64,000 nt of DNA from Vicinamibacterales bacterium (GTDB lineage Bacteria > Acidobacteriota > Vicinamibacteria > Vicinamibacterales > UBA8438): positions 947,986 through 1,011,985 of the forward strand of contig OZ252008.1 in NCBI GenBank assembly GCA_965246995.1. Reading direction: 5' to 3'. The position numbers and the translations under genes were made by a program. Below, in pieces: positions 2,080 through 64,000 of this stretch. Within the stretch, counting starts at the first letter, position 1, and each line of letters begins with the position of its first letter. The notes below the pieces were generated by a model that was not told the origin of the DNA, ran no database searches, and was given only the letters and a program-made list of their open reading frames with translations.

Positions 2080-2091
2080 ACGGGCTCCTAG
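2080..2091. repeat. solo terminus of the 184-bp element (ACGGGCTCCTAG)
   Basis: Exact 12-nt match to the right end of the 184-bp element. It fills the 11-nt gap between the DUF1684 start (2076) and the acyl-CoA dehydrogenase stop (cta 2088-2090). Confidence 0.45.
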
Positions 2092-3869
2092 AGTGGGTAC
2101 GCTCCTCGCTCGACCGCAGCGTCCGCCAGGCGGCGTCGGATCGCCACGGCATTGACCGGGATCACTTTCAGCAGCCGGCGGAGTACTGCGAGATGCGTCC
2201 GGAGCGTGTCGCCCTCCGCCATTGCCGCGAGCGCGGCCCGCGCCGTAACGTCAATCCGCAACGCGGCGTCGCTGACGTACACGGCCGCGGCATCCACCTG
2301 CCGGTCGGCGCCGGGCACGCCCTCCGCGGACGCGGCGCGCGCCCGCTGCACCACACTGTCGGCCGCGTAGGTGTCGATGATGATGTCGGCCGCGAGCGAC
2401 AGGATCTCCTGTTCGTCAGTCAGCTTGTTGCCATGCGTCTGGAGCGCCAGGCCGACGACCGCCAGCACCACCTTCCGGAACATGCCGACGGCGGCGTTCT
2501 GCGCTTCGAGCAAACCGTTGCCGGCCGGCGCTACGGGGGAGGGTGTCAGCAATTCGTCCTGCAGCTTCCGGGCCGCGTCGATCAGCGGCAAACCTCCCTT
2601 GAGCGCCCGTTTGACCAGCATGCCGGGGATCAGTAACCGGTTGATCTCGTTCGTCCCTTCGAAGATCCGGTTGACGCGCGAGTCGCGGTAGTGCCGCTCG
2701 GCGGGGTAGTCCCGGACGAAGCCGTTGCCGCCATGGATCTGCACGTTCTCGTCGAGAACGTAGTGCAGTGCCTCGCTGCCGGCCACTTTCAGGATCGATG
2801 ATTCAACCGCGTACTCCTCAAGGGTCCGCAGTAGCGCCCCGGTGTCTTCCGCGTCCGCCTCGGCGAGAGCGGCGTCAATCAAGCCGGCGGTCCGAAAGAC
2901 CATCGACTCGATCGCGTACGTCCTGGCGGTCATCTCGCCCAACTTGTGCTTGATAGCGCCGAAGTTGGCGATTGGCTGGCCGAACTGCTGACGGCTGGCC
3001 GCGTAGCGGGCCGCCTCGCCGACAGCCGATGTCGCGCTGCCGACGGTGGAGGCTCCCAGCTTGAACCGGCCGTAGTTGAGCACGTTGAAGGCGACGCGGT
3101 GGCCCTTGCCCACCTCGCCGAGCAGGTTTTCAGCCGGTACGCGGACGTCCTGCAACACGACCGCGGTCGTCGATGAGCCGTGGAGGCCCATCTTGTGCTC
3201 TTCCTTGCCGCTCGCGACGCCGTCGAATCCCCGCTCGACGATGAACGCGGTGAACTGCTCGCCGTTCACCTTCGCGAACACGATGTAGAGATCGGCGAAG
3301 CCGCCGTTCGTGATCCACATCTTCTCGCCGTTCAGTACGAAGCTGCCGTCCGCCTGCTCGGTCGCGCGTGCGCGGGCGCCGAGCGCGTCGGAGCCGGAGC
3401 CGGTTTCACTCAGGCAATAGGCGCCGACCAGTTCGCCTGACACCAGTTGCGGCAGGTAGCGCTGCTTCTGGTCCTCGGTGCCGAACATCAGGATCGGCAG
3501 GATGGCGAGCCCGGTGTGTGCGCCGATGGTGGAGCTGAACGAACCGCACCGGCCGACCGATCCGCCGATGATTGCCGAACTCACTTTGTCGAGTTCGAGG
3601 CCGCCGTACGCCTCCGGCACGTCGGTCCCGAGCAGCCCCAGCTCGCCTGCCTGCCGGAGCAACTGGCGGGCGAGATCCCAGTCCTTGGACTCGAGCCGAT
3701 CGTTTTGGGCCAACGTCTCGTCCGCGAACTGATCGGCGGTCTGGCGGAGGAGCCGATGTTCCTCCGTCATCCGTTCCGGCGTGACAATGGCATTGGGGTC
3801 CGTCTCGGCGAGCAGCCACTCGCCACCCCGTGCCGCGTGTTCCGTTGCCGTCATCGTTGCCGTTGCCAT
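2088..3869 (-). CDS. acyl-CoA dehydrogenase (long, ~590 aa type)
   Basis: 593-aa ORF. ACAD motifs are present: AYCLSETGSGSDA and QIHGGNGFVRDYPAERHYRDSRVNRIFEGTNEI. A C-terminal extension follows, as in FadE-type enzymes. Confidence 0.9.
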   Translation of the reverse strand: MATATMTATEHAARGGEWLLAETDPNAIVTPERMTEEHRLLRQTADQFADETLAQNDRLESKDWDLARQLLRQAGELGLLGTDVPEAYGGLELDKVSSAIIGGSVGRCGSFSSTIGAHTGLAILPILMFGTEDQKQRYLPQLVSGELVGAYCLSETGSGSDALGARARATEQADGSFVLNGEKMWITNGGFADLYIVFAKVNGEQFTAFIVERGFDGVASGKEEHKMGLHGSSTTAVVLQDVRVPAENLLGEVGKGHRVAFNVLNYGRFKLGASTVGSATSAVGEAARYAASRQQFGQPIANFGAIKHKLGEMTARTYAIESMVFRTAGLIDAALAEADAEDTGALLRTLEEYAVESSILKVAGSEALHYVLDENVQIHGGNGFVRDYPAERHYRDSRVNRIFEGTNEINRLLIPGMLVKRALKGGLPLIDAARKLQDELLTPSPVAPAGNGLLEAQNAAVGMFRKVVLAVVGLALQTHGNKLTDEQEILSLAADIIIDTYAADSVVQRARAASAEGVPGADRQVDAAAVYVSDAALRIDVTARAALAAMAEGDTLRTHLAVLRRLLKVIPVNAVAIRRRLADAAVERGAYPL

Positions 3870-8297: not shown

Positions 8298-8345
8298 TTA
8301 GGCGCCCGTGGTGAAACCTCGCGTAGCACCGCCACGGGCGGTTAG
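8298..8345 (-). repeat. 48-bp internally deleted derivative of the 184-bp element, TTAG-bounded
   Basis: The sequence is TTAGGCGCCCGTGGTGAAACCTCGCGTAGCACC-GCCACGGGCGGTTAG. Its first 33 nt match the reverse complement of the right end of the 184-bp element at 29/33. Its last ~15 nt match the other terminus. Confidence 0.6.
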
Positions 8346-9334
8346 GGGAGCGCGGCGAGCGTTGCCTGCGCCTGGGCGCCTTCGGCGGAATCAGGCGCGA
8401 CGTCAACGACCCGCTGGAAGTACTCCTTGGCGGTGGCTATGTCGCCCAGGTTGAGTGCCACTAGCGCGCGCTTGAAGAGCGGCATCGCCCAGTTCCCGTC
8501 GACCGAGATCGCCTTCTCGTACCACTCCGCCGCCTCTTCCGCCGCACCGCGCGCGAACGCCTGCTCGCCCTGGTTGTAGAGATCTTCCCGCGATGCGCTC
8601 AAGCTGGAGGCAGTCTCTTCGAGCAGCTGCAGTTCCTCGGGCGTGGCGGTGCCGGAAGCCATCCGCTGCCGGGCGCGCGCCACCAGGATGACCTGGTTGC
8701 CCGGATCCGCCTCGAGCGCCCGATCGTAAGCTGCGATCGCCGCGTCGTACTGCGTCTGCACGGCGTAGGCATTACCGATATTGACATGCAGCCGCGACAG
8801 CTGCGGGAGTTGCTCGAGGATCGACTCGTATCCGCTGATCGCCTGGTCGTAGTTGCCGGTGTTGTAGGCCTCATCCGCCGCGCTCTGGGCCGCTTCGATC
8901 CCGTCGAGATCGACTCCCTCTACCGCTTCCGCGCCGAGCGCCTGCTCGAGCGGGTGGAGAATGCGGTTCAACTGGAAGTCGACCGGCGGCGTTCGGGTCT
9001 GCGTCACCATGGCAGGTCCCTGGCTCGACAAGAAGCCACGCGGCTCGCCGTTCGCTGCTCCGCATTCCGCACCACAGTCGGCCCGGAACACCCACTGGCC
9101 GCTCGCGAGCCCCAGGACGGCGTAGCGTCCGTCGTCTTCGGTTGTCGTCTCGAATTCGGGCGGGTTCGCGGTGGGGTTGGTGGCCGTAATCGTGACGCCG
9201 GCCAGCGGGTTCCCGTTCTCGCCGGTCACCGTGCCGCCGACGCGTCCACGCTGCCCGTAGGCGGTGGCTGCGACCGCCAGCACGAGCAACGCTGCGACGC
9301 CGGAAAAGACAGCGTGACGTGAAAGCAGACTCAT
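8342..9334 (-). CDS. secreted CarboxypepD_reg-like domain + TPR-repeat protein
   Basis: 330 aa with a signal peptide. The N-terminal segment GTVTGENGNPLAGVTITATN...DDGRYAVLGLASGQWVF is followed by TPR-like repeats (YNTGNYDQAISGYE, GNAYAVQTQYDAAIAAYDRAL). Confidence 0.7.
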   Translation of the reverse strand: MSLLSRHAVFSGVAALLVLAVAATAYGQRGRVGGTVTGENGNPLAGVTITATNPTANPPEFETTTEDDGRYAVLGLASGQWVFRADCGAECGAANGEPRGFLSSQGPAMVTQTRTPPVDFQLNRILHPLEQALGAEAVEGVDLDGIEAAQSAADEAYNTGNYDQAISGYESILEQLPQLSRLHVNIGNAYAVQTQYDAAIAAYDRALEADPGNQVILVARARQRMASGTATPEELQLLEETASSLSASREDLYNQGEQAFARGAAEEAAEWYEKAISVDGNWAMPLFKRALVALNLGDIATAKEYFQRVVDVAPDSAEGAQAQATLAALP

Positions 9335-15264: not shown

Positions 15265-15276
15265 CCGGGCTCCTAG
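15265..15276. repeat. solo terminus of the 184-bp element (cCGGGCTCCTAG)
   Basis: GGGCTCCTAG is an exact 10-nt match to the element end. It lies between convergent genes, and its CTA is the stop codon of the serine hydrolase gene. Confidence 0.4.
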
Positions 15277-16520
15277 CCGGCGGCGCTGACCGCGGCAGCC
15301 GCCAGTGTTGCCACCACTCCCCGCAGCGCGACGACGTTCCCCCCGCCGTCCGGGTGAACGCGGTTCGACAGGAAGACCACTGCCGTTTCGGTCTCCGGAT
15401 CGATCCAGATCGATGTCCCGGTGAAACCGGTATGGCCGTACGAGTGGGTGGGCGAGAAGAGATCGCCGCGCGCGGACGAGTAGGGCGAGTCGATGTCCCA
15501 ACCGAGGGCGCGCCGGACGGAGAGTGACGGAGGCGTCGATGGCCGCGTCATCCGGTCGACGGTGAGCGGTGAGAGAATCGCCCGGGTTCGGTCCGGCGCC
15601 CGGCCCCGTGCGAGCAGCATGGCGGCAAACCGGGCCAGATCGTCTGCTGTCGAGAACACGCCGGCGTGGCCGGCGACGCCACCCATCCGACGCGCGGTCG
15701 GGTCATGCACGGTCCCGCGCAGCATGACGCCGTCCGGGCTGCCGCATGGCCAACCGAGCGGCGTGCATGCCTCGGTCGGTGCAATCTGCGCTGTCGTATC
15801 CGCCCCGGGCCGAAACGTCGTCTCGCGCATGCCGAGCGGTTCGAACAGCCGTTCGCGGGCAAAGACATCGAGTGGCCGGCCGCTTACGCGTTCGACGATG
15901 GCCCCCAGGAGGATGAAGTTGAGGTCGCTGTAGATGAAGGTCTCGCCGGGCGGTGATTCGAGCCGCTCGTCGAGAATCCGCCGGAGCGCTTCGTCCGTCC
16001 CTTCGAACTCCTCTTCGAGCGGCAGGTCGGGCCGGAGCCCGGAGACGTGCGTCAGCAACTGCTCGACGGTGACTGTTTCCTTGCCGTGGCGCTCGAAGCC
16101 CGGCAGGTGGCGGGCCACCCGGTCGCGCAGACGAAGAGCGCCGTCCTCGACGAGCGCCATCACGCTCGGAGCCGTTGCCACCACTTTCGTAAGCGAAGCC
16201 AGGTCGAACCGCGTCTCGGCGGTCATCGGCTCGCGCGCCGGGCGGACGGAGCGCAGGCCGAATGCCTCGCGATAGATGGTCCGGTTGCGGTGGACCACGA
16301 GGATGACGGCGCCCGGAAGATGGCCCGCGTCGATCGCTTCCTGAACGACCACGCCGATCCGCGCCAGACGGTCCGCGTCGACAGATGGGGTCGCTCGGGT
16401 CTGGTTCGGTGCCGCCGCGGGGATCGGGGCAGGCGTGAGCAGCGCCACCGTGATGGCGGCGATCCCGAGCCATCGCCGGTCGTGCGGGGCTGGGGTGTTG
16501 CCACGGGCTGTCGAGTGCAT
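15273..16520 (-). CDS. serine hydrolase, beta-lactamase/transpeptidase-like fold
   Basis: 415 aa with a signal peptide. It has the SxxK motif (ASLTKV), YSDLNF and HTGFTGTS. Confidence 0.85.
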   Translation of the reverse strand: MHSTARGNTPAPHDRRWLGIAAITVALLTPAPIPAAAPNQTRATPSVDADRLARIGVVVQEAIDAGHLPGAVILVVHRNRTIYREAFGLRSVRPAREPMTAETRFDLASLTKVVATAPSVMALVEDGALRLRDRVARHLPGFERHGKETVTVEQLLTHVSGLRPDLPLEEEFEGTDEALRRILDERLESPPGETFIYSDLNFILLGAIVERVSGRPLDVFARERLFEPLGMRETTFRPGADTTAQIAPTEACTPLGWPCGSPDGVMLRGTVHDPTARRMGGVAGHAGVFSTADDLARFAAMLLARGRAPDRTRAILSPLTVDRMTRPSTPPSLSVRRALGWDIDSPYSSARGDLFSPTHSYGHTGFTGTSIWIDPETETAVVFLSNRVHPDGGGNVVALRGVVATLAAAAVSAAG

Positions 16521-27403: not shown

Positions 27404-29407
27404 GTGCACGACCTCGACATCCTTCGCGACCTGGCGATCATCGCCGGTCTCGCCATCCCTGTCGTTGCGCTCGCGCACCGGTTGCGCCTGCCGCCGCTGG
27501 TCGGCTTCCTCGTGGTGGGGGTGGTGATCGGTCCCTCCGGCCTGGCGCTAATCCCGGACCCCGACGAAGTATCAGCGCTTTCCGAGATCGGCGTCGTTCT
27601 GTTGCTGTTTGCGATCGGTCTGGAGCTTTCGCTCTCCGATGTTCTCCGGCTTGGCCGCTCGGTCGTCGTGGCGGGCGGACTGCAAATCGCGGGAACCCTG
27701 GCTGCCGCCCTCGCCATCGGCCTTGCCTTCGGCCTGTCGCCCGGCCGCGCGCTCTTCTATGGCGCGCTCGCGGCGATGTCGTCGACGGCGGTCGTCAGCA
27801 AGGCGTACGCCGACCGGGGCGAACTCGACACGGCGCACGGGCGCCAGGTGATCGCGATCCTGCTCTGCCAGGACCTCTGCATTGTTCCGATACTGCTGTT
27901 GCTGCCGCTCGCCGCCGGCGGAACCGTCAATGGCGAGGCGGCCGGCCTGAGAATCCTGGTCGGTCTTGCGGCGATGACGGCGCTGGTCTTCGGCGGCCGC
28001 GTCGTCGTGCGCGCCACGCTCGACCGGATCGTCATGCTGCGCGACCGCGAGCTGTTCACGCTCTGCGTGGGTTTCTTTGGGCTCGCGACTGCGCTGGTGG
28101 CCGCGGGGACGGGCTTCTCGCTGGCGATCGGCGCATTTCTTGCCGGCCTCATCATCTCGGAGTCGGAGTACGGCCAACAGGCGCTCTCGGACGTCATCCC
28201 GTTCCGCTCGCTCTTCAGCGGTGTCTTCTTCACCTCCATCGGCATGCTGCTTGACTTGCGCGTCGTGATGGACGCGCCGTTCGCCGTTATTGGGGGGACC
28301 CTGTTACTCATCATCGCCAAGGGAGGGATTGCCACGGCGGCCGTCATCCTGCGCGGGCAACGGTTGGAGACCGGGCTCCGGAGCGGTATCAGTCTGGCGC
28401 AGTTGGGCGAGTTCTCATTCGTCCTTGCCGCGGTCGGTCTGGATCTGGGCCTGTTCGCGGGCAATCACTACCAGGTCTTCCTCGCGGCGGCGGTGCTCTC
28501 GCTGATGGCGACGCCGTTCCTGATCGGGTCCGCGTACCAGGCGTCGGAAGCGGTCGGCCGGGTGGTGCGACGCACCGTCACGCATGCCCGCGGCGTGGAG
28601 GCGGAACCGCGCGTCAGTGGCGAGTTGAGCACGTTGCGCGACCATGCAGTCGTCGTTGGCTACGGTGTTGCCGGTCGGTACCTGGGACGCATGCTGCAAG
28701 CGGCCGGCATCCGGTGCGTGGTGATCGACCAGAACGTAGAGTTGGTCCGACAGGCGCACGACGACGGGCTGCTGGCCGTTTATGGCGACGGTGCGAACTC
28801 GCTGATGCTGGAGCAGGTGGGTTGCGAGCGCGCGCGTATCGTCGTCTACGCGATCGCGTCACCGGTGGAGGAGCGCCGCGGCGTGGCGGCGGCGCGTGAG
28901 GTCGCGCCCGGAGCCACCATCGTTGTCCGGACTCGCTATGTCCGCGCCATTGACGACCTCATGCGTCTCGGCGCGAACGAGGTAGTGGTGGAGGAGTTCG
29001 AGGCGTCACTCGAGCTGTTCGCCCGCGCGCTCCGGAGCTACGCGATCCCGCCGCGCCGTATCGCGCATGAGTTGAACGCGGTGCGCGATGAACACTACGG
29101 ATTGTTACGCGGAACCGCGGCTCCCGACCTGACGCTCGACGCGCTGCAACACCTGGGCATTCACGACGCGCTCGAGCTGATCGAGGTGGAAGCAGGTTCG
29201 AGGGCCGACGGCGAGAACGCCCGCACGCTCGATCTCCGGCGGGAGACGGGGGCGATACAGATCGCTGTCGTGCGCGATGGGGTCCCCATTTACCGTCGTG
29301 ACGAGGCGTTCCGGTACCGGCCGGGAGATACTGCAGTCATCGTCGGTGATCCGGAAGCCCTGGAACGCGCTGCGGCTCTGTTCCGGGTGGGTTCTGCCGC
29401 GACCTAG
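27404..29407 (+). CDS. CPA2-family cation:proton antiporter with TrkA-N/TrkA-C domains (Kef-like)
   Basis: 667 aa. The N-terminal half has about 12 TM segments. It is followed by the Rossmann motif VVVGYGVAGRYLG and a C-terminal TrkA-C-like region. Confidence 0.9.
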   Translation: MHDLDILRDLAIIAGLAIPVVALAHRLRLPPLVGFLVVGVVIGPSGLALIPDPDEVSALSEIGVVLLLFAIGLELSLSDVLRLGRSVVVAGGLQIAGTLAAALAIGLAFGLSPGRALFYGALAAMSSTAVVSKAYADRGELDTAHGRQVIAILLCQDLCIVPILLLLPLAAGGTVNGEAAGLRILVGLAAMTALVFGGRVVVRATLDRIVMLRDRELFTLCVGFFGLATALVAAGTGFSLAIGAFLAGLIISESEYGQQALSDVIPFRSLFSGVFFTSIGMLLDLRVVMDAPFAVIGGTLLLIIAKGGIATAAVILRGQRLETGLRSGISLAQLGEFSFVLAAVGLDLGLFAGNHYQVFLAAAVLSLMATPFLIGSAYQASEAVGRVVRRTVTHARGVEAEPRVSGELSTLRDHAVVVGYGVAGRYLGRMLQAAGIRCVVIDQNVELVRQAHDDGLLAVYGDGANSLMLEQVGCERARIVVYAIASPVEERRGVAAAREVAPGATIVVRTRYVRAIDDLMRLGANEVVVEEFEASLELFARALRSYAIPPRRIAHELNAVRDEHYGLLRGTAAPDLTLDALQHLGIHDALELIEVEAGSRADGENARTLDLRRETGAIQIAVVRDGVPIYRRDEAFRYRPGDTAVIVGDPEALERAAALFRVGSAAT

Positions 29408-29415
29408 GAGCCCGT
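29404..29415. repeat. solo terminus of the 184-bp element (CTAGGAGCCCGT)
   Basis: Exact 12-nt match to the left end of the element. Its TAG is the stop codon of the antiporter gene. Confidence 0.45.
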
Positions 29416-31103: not shown

Positions 31104-32096
31104 CTAGAAGATCGCGATCGGATTCAACGGCGAGCCGGTTCCCCCGATCACCGGGATCGGTCCCGCGGTCAGCATGAACTCCCACCGATTCTCCGCCGCC
31201 GCTGTCTCCGCCAGCGCCTCCAGGTCCATGTTGTCGAAGATGTCCGTCCCCAACGCTGCAATCAACAGGGTGTGGACCGGCTGTGTCACATCTTCCACCA
31301 ACGACGGCTGCACGTCGGTCGCCGCATCGCTTCCGACGAAGGCGACATCCCGCTCATGGATCCAGCGCACGACCGACGCGTGAATGCCGGCGGAGTTCCC
31401 CGAGACCTGCCAGGGTCCTTCCGCTGCACGCCGTGCCCAGCGCCCGGTCCGAATAAAGATCACGTCGCCCGATCCAACCGTCACGCCAGCCTGTTCCTCC
31501 CACGCCTCGATGTCCTCGATGTAGATCGGCGTGGCCGGTTCCAGGTACGGAACCCCCTTCAGGCGCGGTATGTCGAGCAGGATGCCCCGTGTGACGATTC
31601 CCTGCTGCAGATTGGAGATGCCGTTCTTCGTGCATCCCTCCTCGGGCGAACTCGCCGACCTGGGCACGTTGTTGTAGAACATGTCCTTGTATGCGAAATG
31701 GCAGAGCGAATCGATATGGCTGACGCCGTAGCCGTGGTACGTGAATTCGTACGTGTCGCTCGTCAGGCTCTCGGACATCGTGTGATTGAAGGCGGCATCG
31801 GGGTTGTCGACTGCCTCGTCCGGCATGGGGTTGTGCGCGAGCGAGACGGTGATCCCGCTCTGGACCAATGCTGCCGCCTCGCGCACCTTGTCCGGCGTGA
31901 TCAGGTTCGCCGTGCCGCGTTCATCGTCCGGCCCCCAGCGGCCCGCGTTCGACACCTCCTGGAAGAGAGCGTCGAATTCTTCCGCGTTGCGCGGGAAGTT
32001 CCGATCCTCCTGGCTGTCGGCGCCCGAGCAGGCGGCGATGATGACCGTGACTACCGCCGCCACTGCTGCCGATGCCGTCGTCCACTTCAGTGTCAT
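31104..32096 (-). CDS. cyclase-family protein (kynurenine-formamidase-like fold), lipoprotein
   Basis: ORF 31104..32210 trimmed to ATG 32096, downstream of AAGGAGAAGG. Codons further upstream read the repeat element. The lipobox is IIAACSG. Motifs HGYGVSHIDSLCH and DIPRLKG are present. Confidence 0.7.
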   Translation of the reverse strand: MTLKWTTASAAVAAVVTVIIAACSGADSQEDRNFPRNAEEFDALFQEVSNAGRWGPDDERGTANLITPDKVREAAALVQSGITVSLAHNPMPDEAVDNPDAAFNHTMSESLTSDTYEFTYHGYGVSHIDSLCHFAYKDMFYNNVPRSASSPEEGCTKNGISNLQQGIVTRGILLDIPRLKGVPYLEPATPIYIEDIEAWEEQAGVTVGSGDVIFIRTGRWARRAAEGPWQVSGNSAGIHASVVRWIHERDVAFVGSDAATDVQPSLVEDVTQPVHTLLIAALGTDIFDNMDLEALAETAAAENRWEFMLTAGPIPVIGGTGSPLNPIAIF

Positions 32097-32163
32097 GTTC
32101 CTTCTCCTTCGGTGCCGCCGGGTCAGGCGGCCATTGTAGCGACCCTCGTCACCGTTCGGCTTC

Positions 32164-32347
32164 ACAGGAGCCCGTGGTGAAACCCCCGCTACATTCGAGC
32201 GGCGACGCATCCCGCCTGAACGGCGTTGCTCCTCGGACTGCGTCAGTCCGCGGTCGCAATATGGCCAATATGCTCCCTCGTCGCGCCTTGTCAGGCGAGC
32301 GCCTCGTCGCTCTCGGTGCTACGCGGGGTTTCACCACGGGCTCCTAG
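32164..32347 (+). mobile_element. 184-bp inverted-repeat element, copy 1 (MITE-like)
   Basis: About 95% identical (9 mismatches by my count) to 48005..48188 in the same orientation. The terminal inverted repeat is GGAGCCCGTGGTGAAACCCC / GGGGTTTCACCACGGGCTCC. The right flank is CTAG and the left flank is ACAG. Confidence 0.8.
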
Positions 32348-32929
32348 GGCCTGCACCTCACCGTGTCGGAAGCAGTCCACCTGGTGGTCGTTCACCATGC
32401 CCGTCGCCTGCATGTGCGCGTAGCAGATGGTGGAACCGACGAACGAGAAGCCACGCGACTTCAGGTCCTTGCTCAATGCATCGGACTCCTCGGTTCGCGC
32501 CGGCACGTCGGTCCAGGACTGCCTTCTGTTCTGTTTCGGACGACCGTCTACGAACCGCCAGATGTAGGCATCGAAGCTGCCGAACTCGTCCTGCACCTCG
32601 AGAAACGCCCGTGCGTTCTTGATGGCCGATTCGATCTTCAACCGGTTCCGGATAATGCCCGCGTCGTTCAGCAGCCGCGCCACCTGGCCTTCGTCGAACC
32701 GTGCGACCTTCTCCGGATCGAACTGGCTGAACGCAAGACGGTACGCCGGTCGCCGTTTCAGGATGGTGAGCCAGCTCAACCCCGCCTGCGCCCCTTCCAG
32801 CACCAGCATCTCGAAGATTTTCTGATCGTCATGGAGCGGCACGCCCCATTCCTCGTCGTGGTACGGCAGGTAGAGGGGGTGGGAGGCGCCCCAGGGGCAG
32901 CGCTTCCGCTGGTCGCCCGGTGCGGTCAC
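32291..32929 (-). CDS. tag: DNA-3-methyladenine glycosylase I
   Basis: ORF 32291..33007 trimmed to GTG 32929 (MTAPGDQRKRCPWG). It matches E. coli Tag-like blocks: YHDEEWGVP, FEMLVLEGAQAGLSW and ICYAHMQATGMVNDH. The last 18 codons and the stop lie inside element copy 1. Confidence 0.85.
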   Translation of the reverse strand: MTAPGDQRKRCPWGASHPLYLPYHDEEWGVPLHDDQKIFEMLVLEGAQAGLSWLTILKRRPAYRLAFSQFDPEKVARFDEGQVARLLNDAGIIRNRLKIESAIKNARAFLEVQDEFGSFDAYIWRFVDGRPKQNRRQSWTDVPARTEESDALSKDLKSRGFSFVGSTICYAHMQATGMVNDHQVDCFRHGEVQALGARGETPRSTESDEALA

Positions 32930-44890: not shown

Positions 44891-47800
44891 TCAGCGCCGT
44901 GCGGTAGCGAGACAAACGGCAGGAACAACCAACATGTTGAGTGCGGTGGAGGTAACCAGACCGGCAACGATCACGAGGGCCAGCGGAGCCTGAATCTCAC
45001 TGCCAGGCTGACCGGCAGCGAGGGCCACCGGAGTGAGGGCGAGACCGGTCGACACCGCGGTCATCAGCATCGGAATCAGGCGGTCGACCGATCCTCGGAT
45101 CACGGCCGCTTCCGGGTCGCCACCCGCCTGCTGCTGCCGCCGGATGTGCGCCACCAGCATGATGCCGTTGCGCGAGGCGATACCGAATAGCGCAATGAAG
45201 CCGATGAGTGAAGCGATCGAGAGAATGCCATCGCCCAGGAAGACCCCCGCAACGCCGCCGATCAGCGCGAGCGGCAGGTTGATCATCACAATCGCCGCGT
45301 CGCGCACCGATCCGAACGCCGTGGCGAGCAGCAGGAAAATGCCCGCGACGGCGGCGAGACCGAAGCCGATCAGCAGCCGCGACGCCGCCTGTTCCGCCTC
45401 GAACTGCCCGCCGTAATCGACGCGGTAGCCGGGTGGCAGTGAGACGTCGCCGTCCACGCGCGTGCGGACATCGGCGACTACGCTGCCGAGGTCGCGGCCG
45501 GCGGTGTTCGCGGTGACGACGATTCGCCGCTCGCCGTTCTCACGTCCGATAACGTTTGGCGATCGGTCCTCGACGACTTCCGCCAGGCTGCCGAGCGGGA
45601 CGCGCGCACCCGTCGGAACATCGAACCAGGTCTGTCCTACCTGCTCGAGGTCGGCCAGGTCCGGCCGCGCGTGGCGCAGGACAAGGGGCACCAGCACCGG
45701 ACCCTCGACAATCTGTCCTACCTGCCGGCCGAGCAGCGCGGTCTCGAGCATCGCGGCTGCCTCGCCCGCCGGCAGTCCATGCCGTGCGAGAGCGCTCCGG
45801 TCAAAGCCGACGCGCACCGTCGGAATGTCCGCCTGCGGCTCGACCGCGACATCGACCAGGCCATCGATCCCCGTCATCGCGGCCGCCGCGTCGCGGCCCA
45901 AGGCACGCAGTACCGGGAGATCACGGCCGAAGATCTGCACCGCGATATTGGCGCGCGAACCGGACAGCATGTGATCGATCCGGTGCGAGATCGGCTGGCC
46001 GAGCGTGATGTTCGTGCCCGGAACCAGCGACAGCCGCTCGCGGATCTCCGCCAGTACCGTCTCCCGCGGGCGGCCGCCGGGTGTCAACCGCACATCGATC
46101 TCGGCGGACTCGACGCCCTGGACATGCTCGTCCAGCTCCGCGCGGCCGGTCCGGCGGGATGTCGCTTCCACCTCGGGCACATCGAGCAGCAACCGCTCGA
46201 TGGCACGGCCCAGCGCGTCCGACTCTGCCAGGCTGGTGCCGGGCAGCGTCACGGCACTCACCACCAGCGCACCCTCGTTGAACGGCGGCAGGAAGGCGCG
46301 TCCCATCCGTGGCACGGTGGTCAGGGCGGCGACGAACAGGAGCAACGCCGCGCCGACCACCCACGCGGGCCGACGGACGAAGAACGGCAATATCGCGCGG
46401 TAACCCCGCTTCAGCGTTGCCGCGAGGACCGGCTCCCGCCCATCGCGGATCCCGCTCGCGCGCGGCAGCAGGTACGCCGCGAGCGCCGGTGTGACGGTCA
46501 GCGCCACGACGAGCGACGTGCCGAGCGCAATCAGGTAGGCAACACCAAGCGGTTGCAGCAGACGTCCCTCGACGCCGGAGAGAAAAAAGAGCGGCACGAA
46601 CACCAGCATGACGATGACGGTCGCGAAGACGATGGAGCGTCGGATCTCGCGGCTCGCATCGATCACGACATCGAGCGTCGGCCGACGCGAGCGCTCCGGC
46701 AACCGCCCGTTCTCGCGGAGCCGGCGCGTAACATTCTCGACATCGACTATCGCATCGTCCACCAGGGCCCCGACCGCGATCGTCAACCCGCCGAGGGTCA
46801 TGCTGTTGATCGACAGACCCGCCGCACTCAGGCCCATAACTGCGGCCAGTAGCGACAGCGGGATCGCCAGCAGCGTGATCGCGCCCGCACGCGCGCTGGC
46901 AAGGAAGATCAACGTGACGGCAATCACGAGCAACATGCCGTCGCGCAACGCCGCATTCAGGTTGTTCAGCGCCAGTTCGATGAAGTCCGCCTGGCGGAAG
47001 AGACGCGTGGAGAGCTGCATGCCGGACGGCAGTTCCTGCGCCAACTCGTCGAGGACACTATCCAACTCGCCCGTCAGCGTCAGCGTGTTGACCTCCGGCT
47101 GGCGGTGGATGCCGAGAATCACCGCCGGACGGCCGTTGTGCGATCCTTCGCCGCGCTTCAGCGACTCGCCAACCTGCAGCCGGGCAACATCGCGGACGCG
47201 GATCGGCCGCATGTCGCGGGTGGCGACCACCGTCGCGCCGATACCGTCGATCCCGGTGACACGTCCGGATCCCCGGATCAGATACTCCTGGCCACCGGCA
47301 AGACGGAATCCGGCCGAGGTGTTCCGGCTGGCGCCGCGGAGAGCCGTTTCGACCGCGCTGAGCGGGACGCCGTAGGCGGCCAGACGGTCAGGCTCTACCA
47401 GCACCTCGTACTGCCGCCGTTCGCCGCCGATGACTGTCACCTGCGAGACGCCGGGAGTTGCCAGCAACCGACGGCGGACCACCACCTCCGCCGTCGTCCG
47501 GAGCTCGAGCGGCGTGGGCGCGGGCAGACCCGATGCCTCGGCCACGTCGGCCGACGGCTCGAGGGCCACGAACATGATCTCGCCCATGATCGAGGAAAGG
47601 GGCGCCAGTACCGGTGGCTCCACCGCATCCGGCAGGCTGGCTGCGACCATGCTCAGTTTCTCGGTCACCGTCTGGCGGGCGCGGTACGGATCGGCGCCCC
47701 AATCGAAGTCGGCCCAGATCACCGCAATCCCGACCGCGGTAGCGGAGCGGATCCGCCGCACGCCGGAGGAGCCGTTGAGCGCCGATTCGATCGGAATGGT

Positions 47801-47995
47801 GACGAGCGCCTCCATGTCGGACGGCGCCATGCCGTGGCCTTCGACAAGCACGGTGACGGTGGGCGCGGTCAGGTCGGGCAGGACGTCGACCGGCATGCGC
47901 ACGGCAACGACAGCCCCCCAGGCGAGGCCGATAGCAGCAACGGCGGCCACGACGAGGCGATTGCGGACCGACCAGGCGATGAGTGCGTCGAGCAT
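44891..47995 (-). CDS. czcA: CusA/CzcA-family heavy-metal efflux RND pump
   Basis: 1034 aa with a typical HME-RND N-terminus (MLDALIAWSVRNRLVV) and 12-TM layout. Confidence 0.95.
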   Translation of the reverse strand: MLDALIAWSVRNRLVVAAVAAIGLAWGAVVAVRMPVDVLPDLTAPTVTVLVEGHGMAPSDMEALVTIPIESALNGSSGVRRIRSATAVGIAVIWADFDWGADPYRARQTVTEKLSMVAASLPDAVEPPVLAPLSSIMGEIMFVALEPSADVAEASGLPAPTPLELRTTAEVVVRRRLLATPGVSQVTVIGGERRQYEVLVEPDRLAAYGVPLSAVETALRGASRNTSAGFRLAGGQEYLIRGSGRVTGIDGIGATVVATRDMRPIRVRDVARLQVGESLKRGEGSHNGRPAVILGIHRQPEVNTLTLTGELDSVLDELAQELPSGMQLSTRLFRQADFIELALNNLNAALRDGMLLVIAVTLIFLASARAGAITLLAIPLSLLAAVMGLSAAGLSINSMTLGGLTIAVGALVDDAIVDVENVTRRLRENGRLPERSRRPTLDVVIDASREIRRSIVFATVIVMLVFVPLFFLSGVEGRLLQPLGVAYLIALGTSLVVALTVTPALAAYLLPRASGIRDGREPVLAATLKRGYRAILPFFVRRPAWVVGAALLLFVAALTTVPRMGRAFLPPFNEGALVVSAVTLPGTSLAESDALGRAIERLLLDVPEVEATSRRTGRAELDEHVQGVESAEIDVRLTPGGRPRETVLAEIRERLSLVPGTNITLGQPISHRIDHMLSGSRANIAVQIFGRDLPVLRALGRDAAAAMTGIDGLVDVAVEPQADIPTVRVGFDRSALARHGLPAGEAAAMLETALLGRQVGQIVEGPVLVPLVLRHARPDLADLEQVGQTWFDVPTGARVPLGSLAEVVEDRSPNVIGRENGERRIVVTANTAGRDLGSVVADVRTRVDGDVSLPPGYRVDYGGQFEAEQAASRLLIGFGLAAVAGIFLLLATAFGSVRDAAIVMINLPLALIGGVAGVFLGDGILSIASLIGFIALFGIASRNGIMLVAHIRRQQQAGGDPEAAVIRGSVDRLIPMLMTAVSTGLALTPVALAAGQPGSEIQAPLALVIVAGLVTSTALNMLVVPAVCLATARR

Positions 47996-48004
47996 CTCTC
48001 GCTG

Positions 48005-48188
48005 CTAGGAGCCCGTGGTGAAACCCCCGCTACATTCGAGCGGCGATGCATCCCGCCTGAACGGCGTTGCTCCTCGGACTGCGCCAGTCCGCGGTCTCAA
48101 TATGGCCAATATGCTCCCTCGTCGCGCCTTGTCAGCCGGGCGCCTCGCCGCTCTCGCTGCTACGCGGGGTTTCACCACGGGCTCCTAG
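48005..48188 (+). mobile_element. 184-bp inverted-repeat element, copy 2 (MITE-like), CTAG on both sides
   Basis: See copy 1. It runs from CTAG at 48005-48008 to CTAG at 48185-48188. It lies between czcB and czcA. Confidence 0.8.
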
Positions 48189-49732
48189 TGGGTATGGCCG
48201 TGGGCAGGGACCTGGGGTGAGAGAGCCGCGAGGCGGATCAGCGGCGCGCCGTGGATGACGATACGTTCTCCTAGAGCGACATCTCCCGTCACCTGCACGG
48301 CGTCCCCCTCCCGGTTGCCGAGCGTGACCGGGCGGCGTTCGAACGACTCGCCTCCCACTTGCACGAAGAGCACCGGCTGACCCGCATCATCGACGATGGC
48401 GCTTTCCGGCACCGTGATCGTCTCCATCCCTTCCGACAGGAACAGGCGCAGCGTTACCGCCTGGCCAATCACGATCCGGCGATCGGGGTCACGCAACTCG
48501 TACGTGATCGGAACGGTGCGGGCGCCGAGATCGAGAACGCGGCCCACGGCCACCAGCCGTTCGAGGGGCACTGGCGCGCCGAGACCCGGGACTTCGAGTT
48601 CAGCGCCGGTCAGGTCGCCGATCCGCGGAAGCGCAGCCTCCGGCACCGCGCCCACGACATGCACCCGATCCACGGCCACCAGTTCGAACAAACGTGCTGC
48701 CGCCTCGATGCTCGCCCCCGGTGTCGCTTCCGAGAACGCGACAACACCGCTGATCGGCGCACGCAGCACGAAGCGGATGTCATGCTCGCCGTCACCCTCA
48801 CCGGCCCGTGTCGCATCAAGTTGGGCGATATGCGCCTCGGCCGCGTGGAGGCGTACCTCGGCGATATCCTCGGCGACCCGGGCTTCAAGCTGCCGCCGCG
48901 CCGGCACCGCGCCAGCCGCCACCAGGCGATCGACGCGCGCCCGCTCGGCCCGGCTCAGCTCGAGTGCGCTTCGCGCCTCCGCCACGTCCAGTTCGAGCGC
49001 CGGCCGGTCCTCGCCATGACCGCTGTGTGGGATTACCTCGGCCAGCGTGTCGCCCCGCGTGACGAGCGAGCCGATGGGCAGTGGCGGCAGTTCCTCTGCC
49101 AGACGGCCCGTGACCGGCGTGGTCACGTCGGCGCGGCCGCCGGTACGCGGCGCAATCTCGGCCGCAATCGACAGACTGTCGGCGACCGGACGCACCGTGG
49201 CAGGCGCGGTGCCGAAGTCGAGCGCCCATTGCTGTTCCTTCAGGAAGGAGATCGATCCGTCATCTTCGGCCGCCGTGACGGCAGCGGATGCCGCATCGGG
49301 CGAGGCGTGCACGGTCACCGCCCCGAGGCGATGCCGGTCGGCGAGGCCGGGCGCATCGAGCAGGATTTCCAGCTCGTACGCGCCGGGAGAAGATGGCGTG
49401 ACGTCGATGCCGAAGATACCGGGGCGGCTGGGAGCGTCGGCGGTGTAAGTCTGATCCGCGGCGCCACGCAACAGCACAGTCGCGCGGCCCGACCGGATCG
49501 GTTCGAACGTCGCCAGATCGGTCAGATGGACCGCGAAGCGGCTTGTCTCTCCCGCCGCGAGGGCGGGGTACTCGACGAACAACTCGGTGCGGTCAGTCCA
49601 GCGAGTCTCGACGACCGACGGCCGGACATCCGGATCCACCACCGGCGCGGCCGCCGGCGCCATGTCGGATCCACCGGCGCAAGCGGCGGACACCAGGGCC
49701 ACGATCCCGGCAAACGCCCGCGTCATCGTCAT
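48185..49732 (-). CDS. czcB: RND efflux periplasmic adaptor (CzcB/CusB-like)
   Basis: 515 aa with a lipoprotein-like signal peptide. It has coiled-coil and beta-barrel MFP blocks and a His-rich tail PAHGHTH. Its TAG stop is the terminal CTAG of the element. Confidence 0.85.
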   Translation of the reverse strand: MTMTRAFAGIVALVSAACAGGSDMAPAAAPVVDPDVRPSVVETRWTDRTELFVEYPALAAGETSRFAVHLTDLATFEPIRSGRATVLLRGAADQTYTADAPSRPGIFGIDVTPSSPGAYELEILLDAPGLADRHRLGAVTVHASPDAASAAVTAAEDDGSISFLKEQQWALDFGTAPATVRPVADSLSIAAEIAPRTGGRADVTTPVTGRLAEELPPLPIGSLVTRGDTLAEVIPHSGHGEDRPALELDVAEARSALELSRAERARVDRLVAAGAVPARRQLEARVAEDIAEVRLHAAEAHIAQLDATRAGEGDGEHDIRFVLRAPISGVVAFSEATPGASIEAAARLFELVAVDRVHVVGAVPEAALPRIGDLTGAELEVPGLGAPVPLERLVAVGRVLDLGARTVPITYELRDPDRRIVIGQAVTLRLFLSEGMETITVPESAIVDDAGQPVLFVQVGGESFERRPVTLGNREGDAVQVTGDVALGERIVIHGAPLIRLAALSPQVPAHGHTH

Positions 49733-58996: not shown

Positions 58997-59035
58997 CTAG
59001 GCGCCGCGACCCGATGTGAGATGATGGGCTCCTAG
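58997..59035. repeat. 39-bp CTAG-bounded mini-element
   Basis: The sequence is CTAG-GCGCCgcgacccgatgtgagatgatGGGCTC-CTAG. The termini resemble those of the 184-bp element and its 48-bp derivative. It ends 6 nt before the ATG at 59042. Confidence 0.5.
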
Positions 59036-60171: not shown

Positions 60172-60197
60172 CTAGGAGTCCATATACGGGCTCCTAG
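60172..60197. repeat. 26-bp CTAG-bounded mini-palindrome
   Basis: The sequence is CTAGGAGtCC-atatac-GGgCTCCTAG. It lies between convergent genes. The right CTAG supplies the TAG stop of the gene at 60194..60589. Confidence 0.6.
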
Positions 60198-60589
60198 AAG
60201 TCGTCGGGGGCGGAGGCACTCCCGCCATCCCAGTCCTTGACGGATCCATCCGCCGCCTTCAGGAACCCGAGCAGACATCCAGGGGAGCCGTCCCGGACCG
60301 GGTGGCAGCGCGCCTTGACCGCGTCGCCCGGCCGAACGTAGTCGCGAGTGACGCCGATCCCCTCGAGCCCGTTGCGGTCGGTGGCCTCCAGCGCCCATAT
60401 CTGCGGCTGGCCGTCGGATCCCTCCACTTCCACGTAGATCCAGGAATGCGGAACCAGCAGGTGCAATTCCGTGACCACACCCTCGATGTCCGTGAACGTG
60501 TCCGAGTAGTTGCCGTGAGAATGGTGCGCGCTGGCTGGCAACGCCAGGGAAACCGCACAGACGGCTGCAAGAGTCAGTTTGAACCGCAT
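60194..60589 (-). CDS. DUF6152-like secreted protein
   Basis: ORF 60194..60787 trimmed to ATG 60589, downstream of GGAGGG. The signal peptide is followed by AHHSHGNY...GVVTELHLLVPHSWIYVEV. Confidence 0.6.
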   Translation of the reverse strand: MRFKLTLAAVCAVSLALPASAHHSHGNYSDTFTDIEGVVTELHLLVPHSWIYVEVEGSDGQPQIWALEATDRNGLEGIGVTRDYVRPGDAVKARCHPVRDGSPGCLLGFLKAADGSVKDWDGGSASAPDDF

Positions 60590-62321: not shown

Positions 62322-62340
62322 CTAGGAGCCCGACTCCTAG
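62322..62340. repeat. 19-bp CTAG-bounded mini-palindrome
   Basis: The sequence is CTAGGAG-cccga-CTCCTAG, a 7-bp stem. The right CTAG supplies the TAG stop of the M28 peptidase gene. Confidence 0.6.
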
Positions 62341-64000
62341 TTCCGCGCGCGCGGAATCAGTTCGACGGTGACCCGTTCGCCGTCGCGGACCACGATCACC
62401 TCGGCCGGCTGTCCGACGCGGAGCAGGTCGAGGGCGAACATGTAGTCGTAGATATCCCCCACCTCGCGGCCGGCAAGGCTGACGATGACGTCGCCCCCCT
62501 CGAGGCCCGCCTCGGCCGCGGGGCCGCCCGCGACGACGCCGGAAAGGGCAAGCCCTTCCGTTTCCTGCGTGTAGTCCGGGATCGTGCCCGTGTAGATCCG
62601 CATCATCGCGGTGCCGCCCTGCTGCTCCTCGCGCTCCACCTCGACGAAGTCCGGCGGCTCCGGACGGAGAGCGAGGTTGCCAGCAACCACGCTGGCCAGG
62701 TCGACGATCTTCGCGATGCCGTCGTAGTTGAGAGTGTCAGCGTCGTCGGACGGCCGGTGATATTCCTCGTGGGAGCCGGTGAAGAAATTGAGGCTCGGCA
62801 CGTCAGCATCGTTCAGGCTCCGGACGTCCGTAGGCAGGTACGGATCGGCAACGAACGACAGGGTCAGATCGGCCGGCTCGTTCAGCTCCTCCACCAGGTC
62901 GGTCCAGATCGAGCTGCTGCCGACCGCTTGCACATTGACGGTGTTCTCGCGCAGGCGGCCCACCATGTCGAAGTTGATGTAAGCCGCGATCTCCTCTGTC
63001 GGAACGGGCGGCCGCTCGACGAAGTCGTCCGAGCCGAGCAGGCCCAGTTCCTCGCCGGACCAGAACGCCAGGATGACGCCCCGGTCGCGCTCGACCTCCG
63101 CAAGGCGCTCCCCCACCGCAAGAACCGCAGCAACGCCCGACGCATTGTCGTCGGCGCCGTTGTGGACTTGTCCCACTTCGTCGTCGCGCGCGAGCGAGTC
63201 GCCACCGAGGCCCCGACCCAGGTGGTCGTAGTGGGCGCCCAGCAGCAGGTACGGCTTGTCGACCTCCGCGTCGCGGGTGGGCGGCAACCAACCGATCACG
63301 TTGTGGCCGGCACCCGGCTGGCGTTCGAGGCGGACATCGAGCGCCGCGGCGAGCGGCAGATCGAAGCCGGCGATGTGCGGGTTAGCGGTGTCGAATTCTG
63401 CCTGCACCTCGGCGAGCGGACGACCGGCGCTCTCGACGATCGCCGCGCCGAGCGCGCCATCGACGGTCGCCGCGACCAGGCCGGCGTCGCCCATCGCGTT
63501 GTCGAAGGTGAGTGGCGCGAGTTCGCCCGCGTTGGGCGAGTTCGGGCCGGTGAGCACGATCAGGCCGACCGCGCCGCGCTCACGCGCCGCGAAAGCCTTG
63601 TTGCGAAGTCCCGCGACGCGCGACAGCTCGCCACGCACGTCGCCCTCCGACTCCTCTGGGAAATAGCGGAGAACAACGGCGATCTTTCCTTCGACATCGA
63701 GCGTCGCGTAGCTGTCGTAGCTGAAACCATCGGCCGTCTCCGAAACCGACAGCCCGTAGCCGGCGAAGACCAGCGCCGCCTCGAGGGAGTCGGTCTCCGA
63801 GAAGGCAAGGCCCCGAACGGACGGCGTATCGCCGCCGGAGGCTTCGGGCAGCGCGACCGACTCGCCCTCCGCATCGGTGAGCGCGATCGCCGTGCCGGTG
63901 TCCTCGATCCCCGAAGTGAACGCGAACTCGTGGCGGAACGCGTCGTGGTCCGGCAGCGGCTCGGCGCCGATCGACTGCAACTGGCCGATCAGGTAGTGCG
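62337..64000 (-). CDS. M28-family aminopeptidase with PA and C-terminal PDZ domains; 5' end beyond the window
   Basis: The frame stays open upstream of the track's TTG at 63980 as far as the window edge (..HYLIGQLQSIGAEPL). M28 blocks are NVIGWLP, LLGAHYDHLG, GADDNASG and FWSGEELGLLGS. The PDZ tail is GLEGGDVIVSLAG. Confidence 0.8.
   Translation of the reverse strand, partial: HYLIGQLQSIGAEPLPDHDAFRHEFAFTSGIEDTGTAIALTDAEGESVALPEASGGDTPSVRGLAFSETDSLEAALVFAGYGLSVSETADGFSYDSYATLDVEGKIAVVLRYFPEESEGDVRGELSRVAGLRNKAFAARERGAVGLIVLTGPNSPNAGELAPLTFDNAMGDAGLVAATVDGALGAAIVESAGRPLAEVQAEFDTANPHIAGFDLPLAAALDVRLERQPGAGHNVIGWLPPTRDAEVDKPYLLLGAHYDHLGRGLGGDSLARDDEVGQVHNGADDNASGVAAVLAVGERLAEVERDRGVILAFWSGEELGLLGSDDFVERPPVPTEEIAAYINFDMVGRLRENTVNVQAVGSSSIWTDLVEELNEPADLTLSFVADPYLPTDVRSLNDADVPSLNFFTGSHEEYHRPSDDADTLNYDGIAKIVDLASVVAGNLALRPEPPDFVEVEREEQQGGTAMMRIYTGTIPDYTQETEGLALSGVVAGGPAAEAGLEGGDVIVSLAGREVGDIYDYMFALDLLRVGQPAEVIVVRDGERVTVELIPRARN

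Follow-up and report, generated by a model that had tools for sequence, protein, structure and literature searches.

A 184-bp hairpin-forming inverted-repeat element at gene ends in a Vicinamibacterales genome, a probable member of a family of non-autonomous transposons

The element and its relatives in the window

The stretch of 64,000 nucleotides analysed here (the window) carries two full copies of a 184-bp inverted-repeat element, both inside strings of genes that read on the minus strand. Copy 2 lies between the stop codon of a gene for an RND adaptor (48185..49732, minus strand) and the ATG (47995) of a gene for an RND pump (44891..47995, minus strand), whose protein gave no record in an exact look-up; the element ends in the TAG that serves as stop codon of the adaptor gene, and the pump ATG stands 9 nt beyond its opposite end. 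Copy 1 lies between the gene for Tag, a 3-methyladenine glycosylase (32291..32929, minus strand), and a gene of the cyclase family (start 32096, minus strand). Genes were called with our own crude codon-usage gene caller, trained on the loci of the family described below. Each copy is assigned to the strand on which selection appears to act on the hairpin, the same strand on which the flanking genes read. The two copies and their parts are as follows.

32164..32347, minus strand: full copy 1, 184 bp, with the left TA mutated to CA
32167..32186, plus strand: terminal inverted repeat, left arm of copy 1
32325..32344, minus strand: terminal inverted repeat, right arm of copy 1, next to TA 32345-32346
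32267-32294, minus strand: predicted sigma-70-like promoter match in copy 1, twin of that in copy 2
48005..48188, minus strand: full copy 2, 184 bp when the C-TA...TA-G at its borders is counted
48008..48027, plus strand: terminal inverted repeat, left arm of copy 2, GGAGCCCGTGGTGAAACCCC, next to the presumed target duplication TA 48006-48007
48166..48185, minus strand: terminal inverted repeat, right arm of copy 2, next to the presumed target duplication TA 48186-48187
48076..48093, no strand assigned: 18-nt apical hairpin insert GGACTGCGCCAGTCCGCG, with its copy 1 counterpart at 32235-32252
48108..48135, minus strand: predicted sigma-70-like promoter match CTGACA-16-CATATT, directed toward the pump gene

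Pairwise alignment bears out the statement of the first-pass annotation that 32164-32347 and 48005-48188 are the same 184 bp in the same orientation, with 9 mismatches (95.1% identity). Two of the nine are the ACAG of copy 1 against the CTAG of copy 2 at the left end, copy 1 being bounded by ACAG through a mutation of its left TA to CA. When the alignment takes in 24 nt of flank on each side, the identity spans 32166/48007 to 32347/48188 and nothing outside it matches; a separate search for repeats lists the pair (182 nt, 96%) as the sole long direct repeat in the window. The perfect terminal inverted repeat of about 23 nt that had been described is confirmed, an exact 20-nt arm standing at all four ends: GGAGCCCGTGGTGAAACCCC occurs exactly four times, on both strands and in both copies, against a shuffle expectation of 0.00. 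The rod-like fold that had been predicted for either strand was likewise recovered when both strands of copy 2 were folded, each giving a single rod, at -107.6 kcal/mol (z = -8.8) on the plus strand and -117.8 kcal/mol (z = -10.8) on the minus strand. What sets the subfamily found in the window (184 bp) apart from the family consensus of 166 bp is the 18-nt insert, present as a tandem duplication in one relative (L106).

The element had also been said to have no credible coding capacity. The open reading frames that cross it are indeed spurious extensions or read-ins of flanking genes; the Tag gene probably reads about 18 codons into copy 1. Copy 1 thus probably supplies these last codons and the stop of the Tag reading frame (32291..32929, minus strand); the Tag protein has 212 residues in relatives that carry the element at this site and 200 in a relative without it. 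The peptide GVSPRAP, which several of the short reading frames share, is the read-through of the repeat that it had been taken for, since GGG GTT TCA CCA CGG GCT CCT is the inverted repeat in one frame. Nor is the N-terminus of the predicted frame 31104..32210, which reads the repeat, genuine coding sequence: homologues have 327-331 residues and start with MTLKW, at position 32096. Seven genes in the window terminate in a TA(G/A) derived from the element or its remnants, and one gene has probably acquired about 18 extra codons. Across the family, the terminal TA lies inside the stop codon of a flanking gene for 24 of the 40 full copies. At copy 2, it is TA 48186-48187, beside the right arm, that contributes to the TAG stop of the adaptor gene, and this arm is the better conserved end of the family.

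The first-pass annotation counted the element as present twice, which is correct for full copies; besides these, the window holds a mini copy, three micro-elements and three solo termini, nine traces of the family in all. The exact 10-mer CTAGGAGCCC occurs nine times in the window, against 0.06 expected. The shorter traces are as follows.

2082..2091, minus strand: solo terminus CTAGGAGCCC, giving the stop of 2088..3869 (minus strand)
8298..8345, plus strand (opposite orientation): mini copy, centrally deleted, 48 nt, TTA-GGCGCCCGTGGTGAAACCTCGCGTAGCACCG/CCACGGGCGGT-TAG
15267..15276, minus strand: solo terminus CTAGGAGCCC, giving the stop of 15273..16520 (minus strand)
29404..29413, plus strand: solo terminus CTAGGAGCCC, giving the stop of 27404..29407 (plus strand)
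58997..59035, no strand assigned: micro-element, 39 nt, with both termini kept, CTAGGCGCC...GGGCTCCTAG
60172..60197, no strand assigned: micro-element, 26 nt, CTAGGAGTCC-ATATAC-GGGCTCCTAG, its right TAG being the stop of 60194..60589 (minus strand)
62322..62340, no strand assigned: micro-element, 19 nt, CTAGGAGCCCGACTCCTAG, its right TAG being the stop of 62337..63998 (minus strand)

Over 33 nt the mini copy shows 94% complementarity with the end of copy 1. It lies between genes 5984..8275 and 8342..9289 (both minus strand), its TTA being the TAA stop of the latter. A weak, intragenic nhmmer match at 21072-21168 (E = 0.008) was taken as noise. Both CTAG (42 sites against 193 expected) and TA (896 against 1703) are depleted in the window, and termini of the element account for 12 of the 42 CTAG sites. 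Because a mini copy, micro-elements and solo tips occur together in the window, old copies appear to decay by deletion of the central palindrome, which would leave mini and micro-elements as well as solo ends that still give stop codons.

Spread, target sites and candidate mobilisers of the family

When one genome per species was scanned for the 18-mer arm GGNGCCCGTGGTGAAACC, at least 97 stretches matched, and over half of those listed come from MAGs of Vicinamibacterales or Vicinamibacteria. Within 49 loci fetched from the listed stretches, BLASTN and an nhmmer profile recognise at least 74 copies or fragments that do not overlap, of which 40 are full length. Almost all of them are from genomes of Vicinamibacterales (Acidobacteriota). 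The modal length is 166 bp, the copies in the window consisting of this unit plus the 18-nt apical hairpin; other length variants have nested hairpins (about 206-240 bp) or central deletions (56 and 98 bp), and a relative of about 395 bp with matching arms is present in one Thermoanaerobaculia MAG. Nine copies within OZ253581.1 are 94-100% identical to one another (median 97.6%); identity between genomes is 75-85%, which is also the range between the copies in the window and those in two other genomes. The two window copies occupy the same sites in the independent assemblies L098, L106, L107 and L108 (99-100% and 96% amino acid identity), including the site of copy 2 in the 99%-identical relative L098. 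Among named sequences, those nearest to proteins of the window come from MAGs of Vicinamibacterales and Acidobacteria, from which the window is inferred to belong to Vicinamibacterales. Copies are scattered along whole chromosomes among housekeeping genes, in varied neighbourhoods of unrelated function and in every gene arrangement. Neither 72,556 plasmids nor 50,697 phages contain a BLASTN match to the element, and none of the 9 matches to the arm in IMG/VR is the element. At gathering thresholds, Rfam 15 finds only a tRNA in the whole window, and no Rfam model matches either strand of the element even at E <= 10, a setting that returns only four chance-level matches of 13-16 bits for 47950-48250.

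The flanks of the 40 full copies show TA on both sides in nearly every case. Outside the TA, the left side mostly has C and the right side G, the two varying independently (TTAG...CTAA, TTAG...CTAC, GTAG...CTAG, ATAG...CTAT, CTAG...CTAC); on its inner side stands a practically constant base (G...C). Tandem copies have one CTAG in common, the second copy beginning in the CTAG that ends the first (L081, L014). CTAG, initially taken as the boundary of the element, is therefore better described as its favoured target: because TA is kept while the outer bases vary independently, what is duplicated is read as the 2-bp TA within a preferred CTAG, which itself is neither a 4-bp duplication nor part of the element. 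A 4-bp (CTAG) duplication was rejected, as the variant flanks would require about 12 extra mutations against about 3 under the 2-bp model; so was a 3-bp duplication, the fourth base being invariant while the first varies. Since the target is palindromic and the first and last bases of the element pair with it, duplication of TA and insertion beside a TA without duplication are formally inseparable, so that the 2-bp reading is one of parsimony over the variant flanks. Members of the IS630-Tc1-mariner family duplicate TA (PMC2170065), and IS630 prefers TA within 5'-CTAG-3', as stated in the same article on the authority of its references 29 and 30 (PMC2170065). The flank signature of the family is the one reported for IS630.

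Sites without the element, which the first-pass annotation had suggested looking for, exist in relatives of L071 (OZ253581.1). In L071 a test gene has one copy upstream, one at its stop and a third past the next gene, and all three insertions are missing from the orthologous sites in L109 and L110 (orthologues 93% and 89% identical in amino acids). The best-kept empty junction reads GCAAC-TA-AAAGTCGACGG (AAAGTCG) in the relative, and the filled junction in L071 reads GCAAC-TA-[164 bp]-TG-GAAATCGACGG (GAAATCG), a gain of the element plus 2 bp. For the two copies in the window, the nearest relatives without full copies (81-90% amino acid identity) offer no clean empty sites, because their spacers have diverged and one of them holds a remnant in the opposite orientation.

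We consider it likely that the element is a copy of a family of non-autonomous DNA transposons (MITEs) that is widespread in Vicinamibacterales and related Acidobacteriota. At 166 or 184 bp it is below the MITE limit of about 500 bp and has no coding capacity of its own; its terminal arms of 20-23 nt are conserved across 40 copies; its matches, at least 74 in 49 loci, stand in unrelated contexts; and empty sites and a duplication are found, with the caveat that the palindromic target leaves insertion without duplication formally possible. Every MITE property that can be assessed from sequence is present except a known parent insertion sequence. The earlier assignment to non-autonomous transposons of the Correia/ERIC/RUP kind is thus supported: the flanks of the two window copies are unrelated and not parts of a longer segmental duplication, many further copies exist in many genomes, and the element corresponds to no structured RNA in Rfam. 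Movement would occur in trans, through a DDE transposase of IS630/Tc1-mariner type that cuts and pastes at TA; because TA, and especially CTAG, is scarce in a genome of 67% G+C and concentrated in TAG and TAA stops, copies would land on stop codons or just after them.

Among the 97 listed loci (about 0.8 Mb), no inward-facing pair of arms at a spacing of 0.9-3 kb was found that could mark an autonomous partner with the same ends, and a solo arm in L078 adjoins an ABC permease gene, with no transposase. At four loci in three of the family's genomes there is a resident insertion sequence of 1,213 bp, flanked by CTAG on both sides, that encodes an IS630-family transposase in two frames (HTH_32 + DDE_3; NF033545, 128 bits for OrfB). 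At three of these four loci it adjoins the better conserved end of the MITE, with CTAG in common. Its ends (GTGCTGTGCCA.../GTGGTCCGTCA...) and those of the MITE have at best 6-8 bases in common among the first 12-18, with p about 0.3-0.7 in local alignment, and the insertion sequence was rejected as the parent; the link to a particular transposase is missing because these ends are unrelated. Neither the MITE nor its arm occurs at 80 metagenome loci encoding IS630 transposases 70-87% identical to that of the resident insertion sequence. From the resident insertion sequence it is clear that these bacteria have active IS630-type enzymes with such a target preference; the mobiliser itself is not thereby named.

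Conservation of the hairpin and rival explanations

RNAalifold applied to 25 copies of standard length yields a rod of 51 pairs, in which 97.8% of the cells are paired. Both partners have changed in 14 pairs, where shuffling of columns gives 5.4±1.6 (none of 500 as high), and pairing falls to 33-43% when partners are slid by 1-3 columns; the AT-rich apical hairpin exists in the compensatory variants CATAT/ATATG, CAAAT/ATTTG and CATAC/GTATG. On the reverse complement of the window's plus strand, G·U fills 86 cells in 18 pair columns and A·C only 7 cells in 6 columns, the A·C cells of this strand being the would-be G·U of the other, and one G·U pair is invariant. This strand also folds more stably, by about 10 kcal/mol, in 36 of the 40 copies. 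Mutational strand bias was rejected as the source of the G·U excess, unpaired columns having 5 C>T against 7 G>A. The 5' end on the G·U-tolerant strand is the better conserved one: it is exact while the other arm has drifted in 11 full copies, and the reverse is seen in none. Unpaired blocks are conserved as well (CAAGGCGCGACGAGGGAGCATATTGG), and at an orthologous filled site 3 differences in 183 positions of the element compare with 15 in 194 third codon positions of the gene next to it (p = 0.007). Together, these comparisons show that pairing of the rod is maintained by compensatory substitutions over most of the length of the element, and that the hairpin is maintained by selection, preferentially on one strand. 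The strand-specific tolerance of G·U and the better conservation of one end are unexpected for a simple DDE-mobilised MITE and count against the explanation that we favour.

The orientation of copies relative to genes is biased in the same sense. Where both neighbours run in the same direction (21 informative cases, on the gene calls of our own crude caller), the G·U-tolerant strand is the mRNA sense strand in 16 and antisense in 5 (p = 0.027), and both copies in the window have the majority orientation. An account of this bias by replication strand is unlikely, as a 5-kb stretch of L071 has copies in both orientations. On the G·U-tolerant strand each window copy also has one promoter match, directed toward the downstream gene and the sole one in its 600-nt scan, against 0.0 expected. 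In copy 2 the match overlaps the conserved AT-rich apical palindrome (48099-48113), and the key positions of its -35 and -10 hexamers are conserved in the family alignment. In the -35 hexamer, the base that varies (A or G) changes together with its partner in the stem (AU 12, GC 11), so it is pairing that is demonstrably kept, and not necessarily promoter strength; a promoter as the conserved feature is doubtful. Scans around both window copies detect no terminator belonging to the element itself.

Copies that lie on or after stop codons would be co-transcribed with the flanking genes, and selection would then act on the transcript, in which the hairpin would be kept on the strand that is usually mRNA sense, with G·U tolerated and A·C not. 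Such a hairpin would probably be a stabilising or processing hairpin at 3' ends or between cistrons. A promoter-like site in the same direction would reduce polarity on the downstream gene, and would thereby explain the orientation bias inside operons. It may be that the hairpin is a strand-specific functional module spread by Vicinamibacterales, either at the RNA level, as a 3'-end or intercistronic hairpin combined with a promoter (a 'stop-codon-hairpin-restart' cassette), or as a single-stranded DNA hairpin moved, in spite of its transposon-like ends, by a yet unrecognised enzyme of HUH type; even taken jointly, these two possibilities are unlikely. The cassette, if real, would suit G+C-rich genomes without U-rich terminators, and either possibility would mean a mobile element in which structure, beyond the ends alone, is the unit of selection.

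The main rival is an element resembling REPINs or TIR repeats that would travel in the form of a single-stranded DNA hairpin, with a domesticated HUH (Y1) transposase of RAYT/TIRYT type as its enzyme; we regard it as distinctly unlikely. The stem folded on one strand would serve as the recognition signal, cleavage would fall beside an (N)TAG tag and no true duplication would result; this would fit both a structure kept on one strand with tolerance of G·T(U) and the far better conservation of one end. Whole-element hairpins of REP doublets have likewise been reported to evolve by compensatory change, and a palindromic CTAG hides whether a duplication has taken place or none. Di Nocera et al. 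described TAG-tagged palindromic repeats whose termini often give the stop codon of the flanking ORF and whose stems have frequent G-T pairing, which they read as a sign of transcription; they also assign to Acidobacteria a separate group of TIR-associated Y1 transposases (PMC3733652). Against this rival stand the long perfect terminal inverted repeats, the TA on both sides of nearly every copy and outer bases that behave as for a TA duplication; the tag, moreover, is NTAG, mostly CTAG, at both ends and not GTAG or CGTC. The occurrence of both orientations within 5 kb in L071 goes against a replication-strand rule, and the insertion sequence resident in these genomes, with the same CTAG/TA signature, is of the IS630 family. 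No credible RAYT or IS200 gene was recognised in the loci, a weak negative in that the probe was approximate and such genes are single-copy; its best match in the fetched loci lies inside an unrelated ORF of 833 residues.

It is very improbable that the element is a structured RNA of the host (a cis-regulatory leader, a 3'-UTR element or a family of small RNAs) whose copies arose by ordinary duplication or recombination. Strong covariation, strand preference, the conserved unpaired blocks, a degree of conservation above that of neighbouring synonymous sites and the promoter-like site are all what such an RNA would have. It would not be expected to end sharply at TA in unrelated contexts, to adjoin functionally unrelated genes in any arrangement or to exist in near-identical copies inside one genome; there is also no Rfam match and no terminator of its own, and presence or absence at orthologous sites, with a gain of the element plus 2 bp, largely refutes it. 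Segmental duplication, artefacts of assembly and sites of site-specific recombination (an integron attC, for example), to which two similar imperfect palindromes after stop codons might by themselves point, can practically be set aside, since the flanks are unrelated from the first outside base, independent assemblies (L098, L106, L107, L108) have the same element at the same sites, copies are spread over chromosomes with no cassette arrays, neither copy contains R''/R' cores (RYYYAAC/GTTRRRY), and insertion adds the element alone.

Significance and comparison with known systems

No description of the family was found in Rfam or in the full-text literature on MITEs and repeats of Acidobacteria or Vicinamibacter. 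To judge by these sources, the family is previously undescribed; it belongs to a familiar type of element and embodies no new principle, and its value therefore lies in annotation, in population markers and in a testable regulatory hypothesis. Vicinamibacterales are among the most abundant uncultured bacteria of soil, and to our knowledge almost nothing has been established about their mobile DNA and gene regulation. The family marks their genomes densely, rewrites gene ends and occurs inside operons, and its CTAG ends are landing pads where other insertion sequences accumulate. It will mislead gene callers, through spurious GVSPRAP reading frames, and assemblers, and it provides a clean natural data set on RNA-level selection of MITE hairpins.

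Among the closest known systems are the Correia elements (CREE or nemis) of Neisseria, which are non-coding, about 100-160 bp long, with terminal inverted repeats of about 26 bp and TA at both ends. Their many intergenic copies lie near or overlap gene ends, are co-transcribed and can form a long hairpin; some have promoter-like sequences, and an IHF site and cleavage by RNase III are known. We know of no cognate transposase for them. The Vicinamibacterales element is alike in size class, inverted repeats, TA ends, sites at gene ends, hairpin and promoter-like site. It differs in its 67% G+C and its phylum, so that no relation in sequence is expected, in pairing that extends through most of the element with the support of covariation, and in the CTAG context of its target. 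RUP of Streptococcus pneumoniae is a small inverted-repeat element inserted at TA, with ends that resemble those of IS630-Spn1, and its mobilisation in trans by an IS630-family transposase has been proposed. Insertion at TA and a co-resident IS630-family insertion sequence are common to both cases; unlike those of RUP, the ends of the present element are unrelated to those of the resident insertion sequence. With IS630 itself, from Shigella sonnei, and with ISY100, the element shares the TA duplication, and with IS630 also the CTAG signature, but these are autonomous elements of 1.1-1.2 kb that encode a DDE transposase, whereas the family described here is non-coding and only 166-184 bp long.

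ERIC (IRU) sequences of enterobacteria are imperfect palindromes of about 127 bp in transcribed intergenic regions, for which orientation-dependent effects on mRNA have been reported; their copies are mostly fixed at orthologous sites and give little sign of recent movement. The overall rod-like RNA is similar here, but near-identical copies and insertion polymorphisms show recent activity in the Vicinamibacterales family. REPs, finally, are units of 20-40 bp tagged with GTAG or CGTC, for which we know of no described duplication. Like GTAG-tagged REPs, REPINs and TIR repeats, the element has TAG ends that give stop codons and stems rich in G-T pairs; unlike REPs, it forms a unit of 166 bp with inverted ends of 20 nt and with NTAG, mostly CTAG, on both sides.

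Depleted CTAG sites and the elements nested at them

CTAG is strongly depleted in the window (193 sites expected from base composition, 42 observed), TA is depleted too (1703 expected, 896 observed), and 12 of the 42 CTAG sites lie at termini of the MITE family. Three CTAG sites (17242, 17288 and 17329) are grouped within and just upstream of a tRNA gene (17318-17389); at gathering thresholds this gene is all that Rfam matches in the window. Two insertion sequences are found beside family copies in the fetched loci:

L061:3180-4392, L067:4426-5641, L089:4274-5489 and L023:5263-6462, resident IS630-family insertion sequence, 1,213 bp
L023:3172-5266 and L089:2183-4277, IS1634-family insertion sequence, 2.1 kb

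The IS630-family element encodes orfA (HTH_32) and orfB (DDE_3, NF033545), its copies in three Vicinamibacterales genomes are 86-94% identical, and it has CTAG on both sides; in three of the four cases it directly abuts a MITE copy, on the side of the copy's better conserved end, with one CTAG shared by the two. The IS1634-family element, which encodes a 614-aa transposase and has the inverted ends CCCAAGTTTACCA, is likewise bounded by CTAG and is placed between the MITE and the IS630-family element at both of its loci. The CTAG sites at element ends serve three unrelated mobile elements as places to nest.

Composite variants and associated hairpins

Three further repeats share sequence with the family or lie within its copies:

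L061:1-351, 2483-2900 and 4367-4790, composite repeat, three copies
L023:~3040-3080, L039 and L075:~1310-1350, nested 40-nt hairpin GCGGATCGGC...GCCGATCCGC
L004:~6230-6310, L008, L014:1410-1899, L075:3560-3700, and L087:835-914 and 7164-7302, second small hairpin repeat GTAGGGGCAACCCTTGTGGTTGCCCTGTTC

The composite repeat has only its first ~66 nt in common with the family (the arm and the subterminal module up to CTGACAAGGC) and beyond this runs into GC-rich hairpin modules of other kinds, GCGGGGCAAAGGGGTCCCCGCTAGCG among them, which suggests a modular superfamily with one common end. Three copies carry the 40-nt hairpin at an identical internal position and are thereby 206-233 bp long. The repeat GTAGGGGCAACCCTTGTGGTTGCCCTGTTC commonly occurs as tandem units, and it interrupts or replaces the apical part of the MITE copies of OZ253576.1 and OZ244838.1.

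The two window sites in related genomes

Copy 1 (32164-32347) contains the end of the Tag glycosylase open reading frame (32291-32347; ...EVQA-LGARGETPRSTESDEALA), whereas the protein of a relative without the element ends in ...EVRGLGRPMP (200 aa versus 212 aa); the C-terminus and stop codon of this housekeeping gene have been replaced by the element. The orthologous copy at L106:2233-2432 carries a tandem duplication of the 18-nt apical hairpin unit (17 extra nt), and its flanking genes are 99.8-99.9% identical to those of the window, indicating that slippage alters the tip of the rod even among very close strains. Adjoining the insertion site is a local rearrangement: the relative without copy 1 has a PhdYeFM antitoxin/PIN toxin pair after the cyclase gene (L105:3596-4230), where the window and L106-L108 have a SpoU methylase gene on the opposite strand.

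The site of copy 2 (48005-48188) has an orthologue in OZ253581.1:

L100:4585-4635, adaptor-pump spacer

This spacer lacks a full element; of the conserved end it retains ~33 nt (GGTGCTGCGCGGGATCTCGCCACGGGCTCCCAG), in opposite orientation and adjoining the ATG of the pump gene, which suggests an independent, older insertion into the same spacer.
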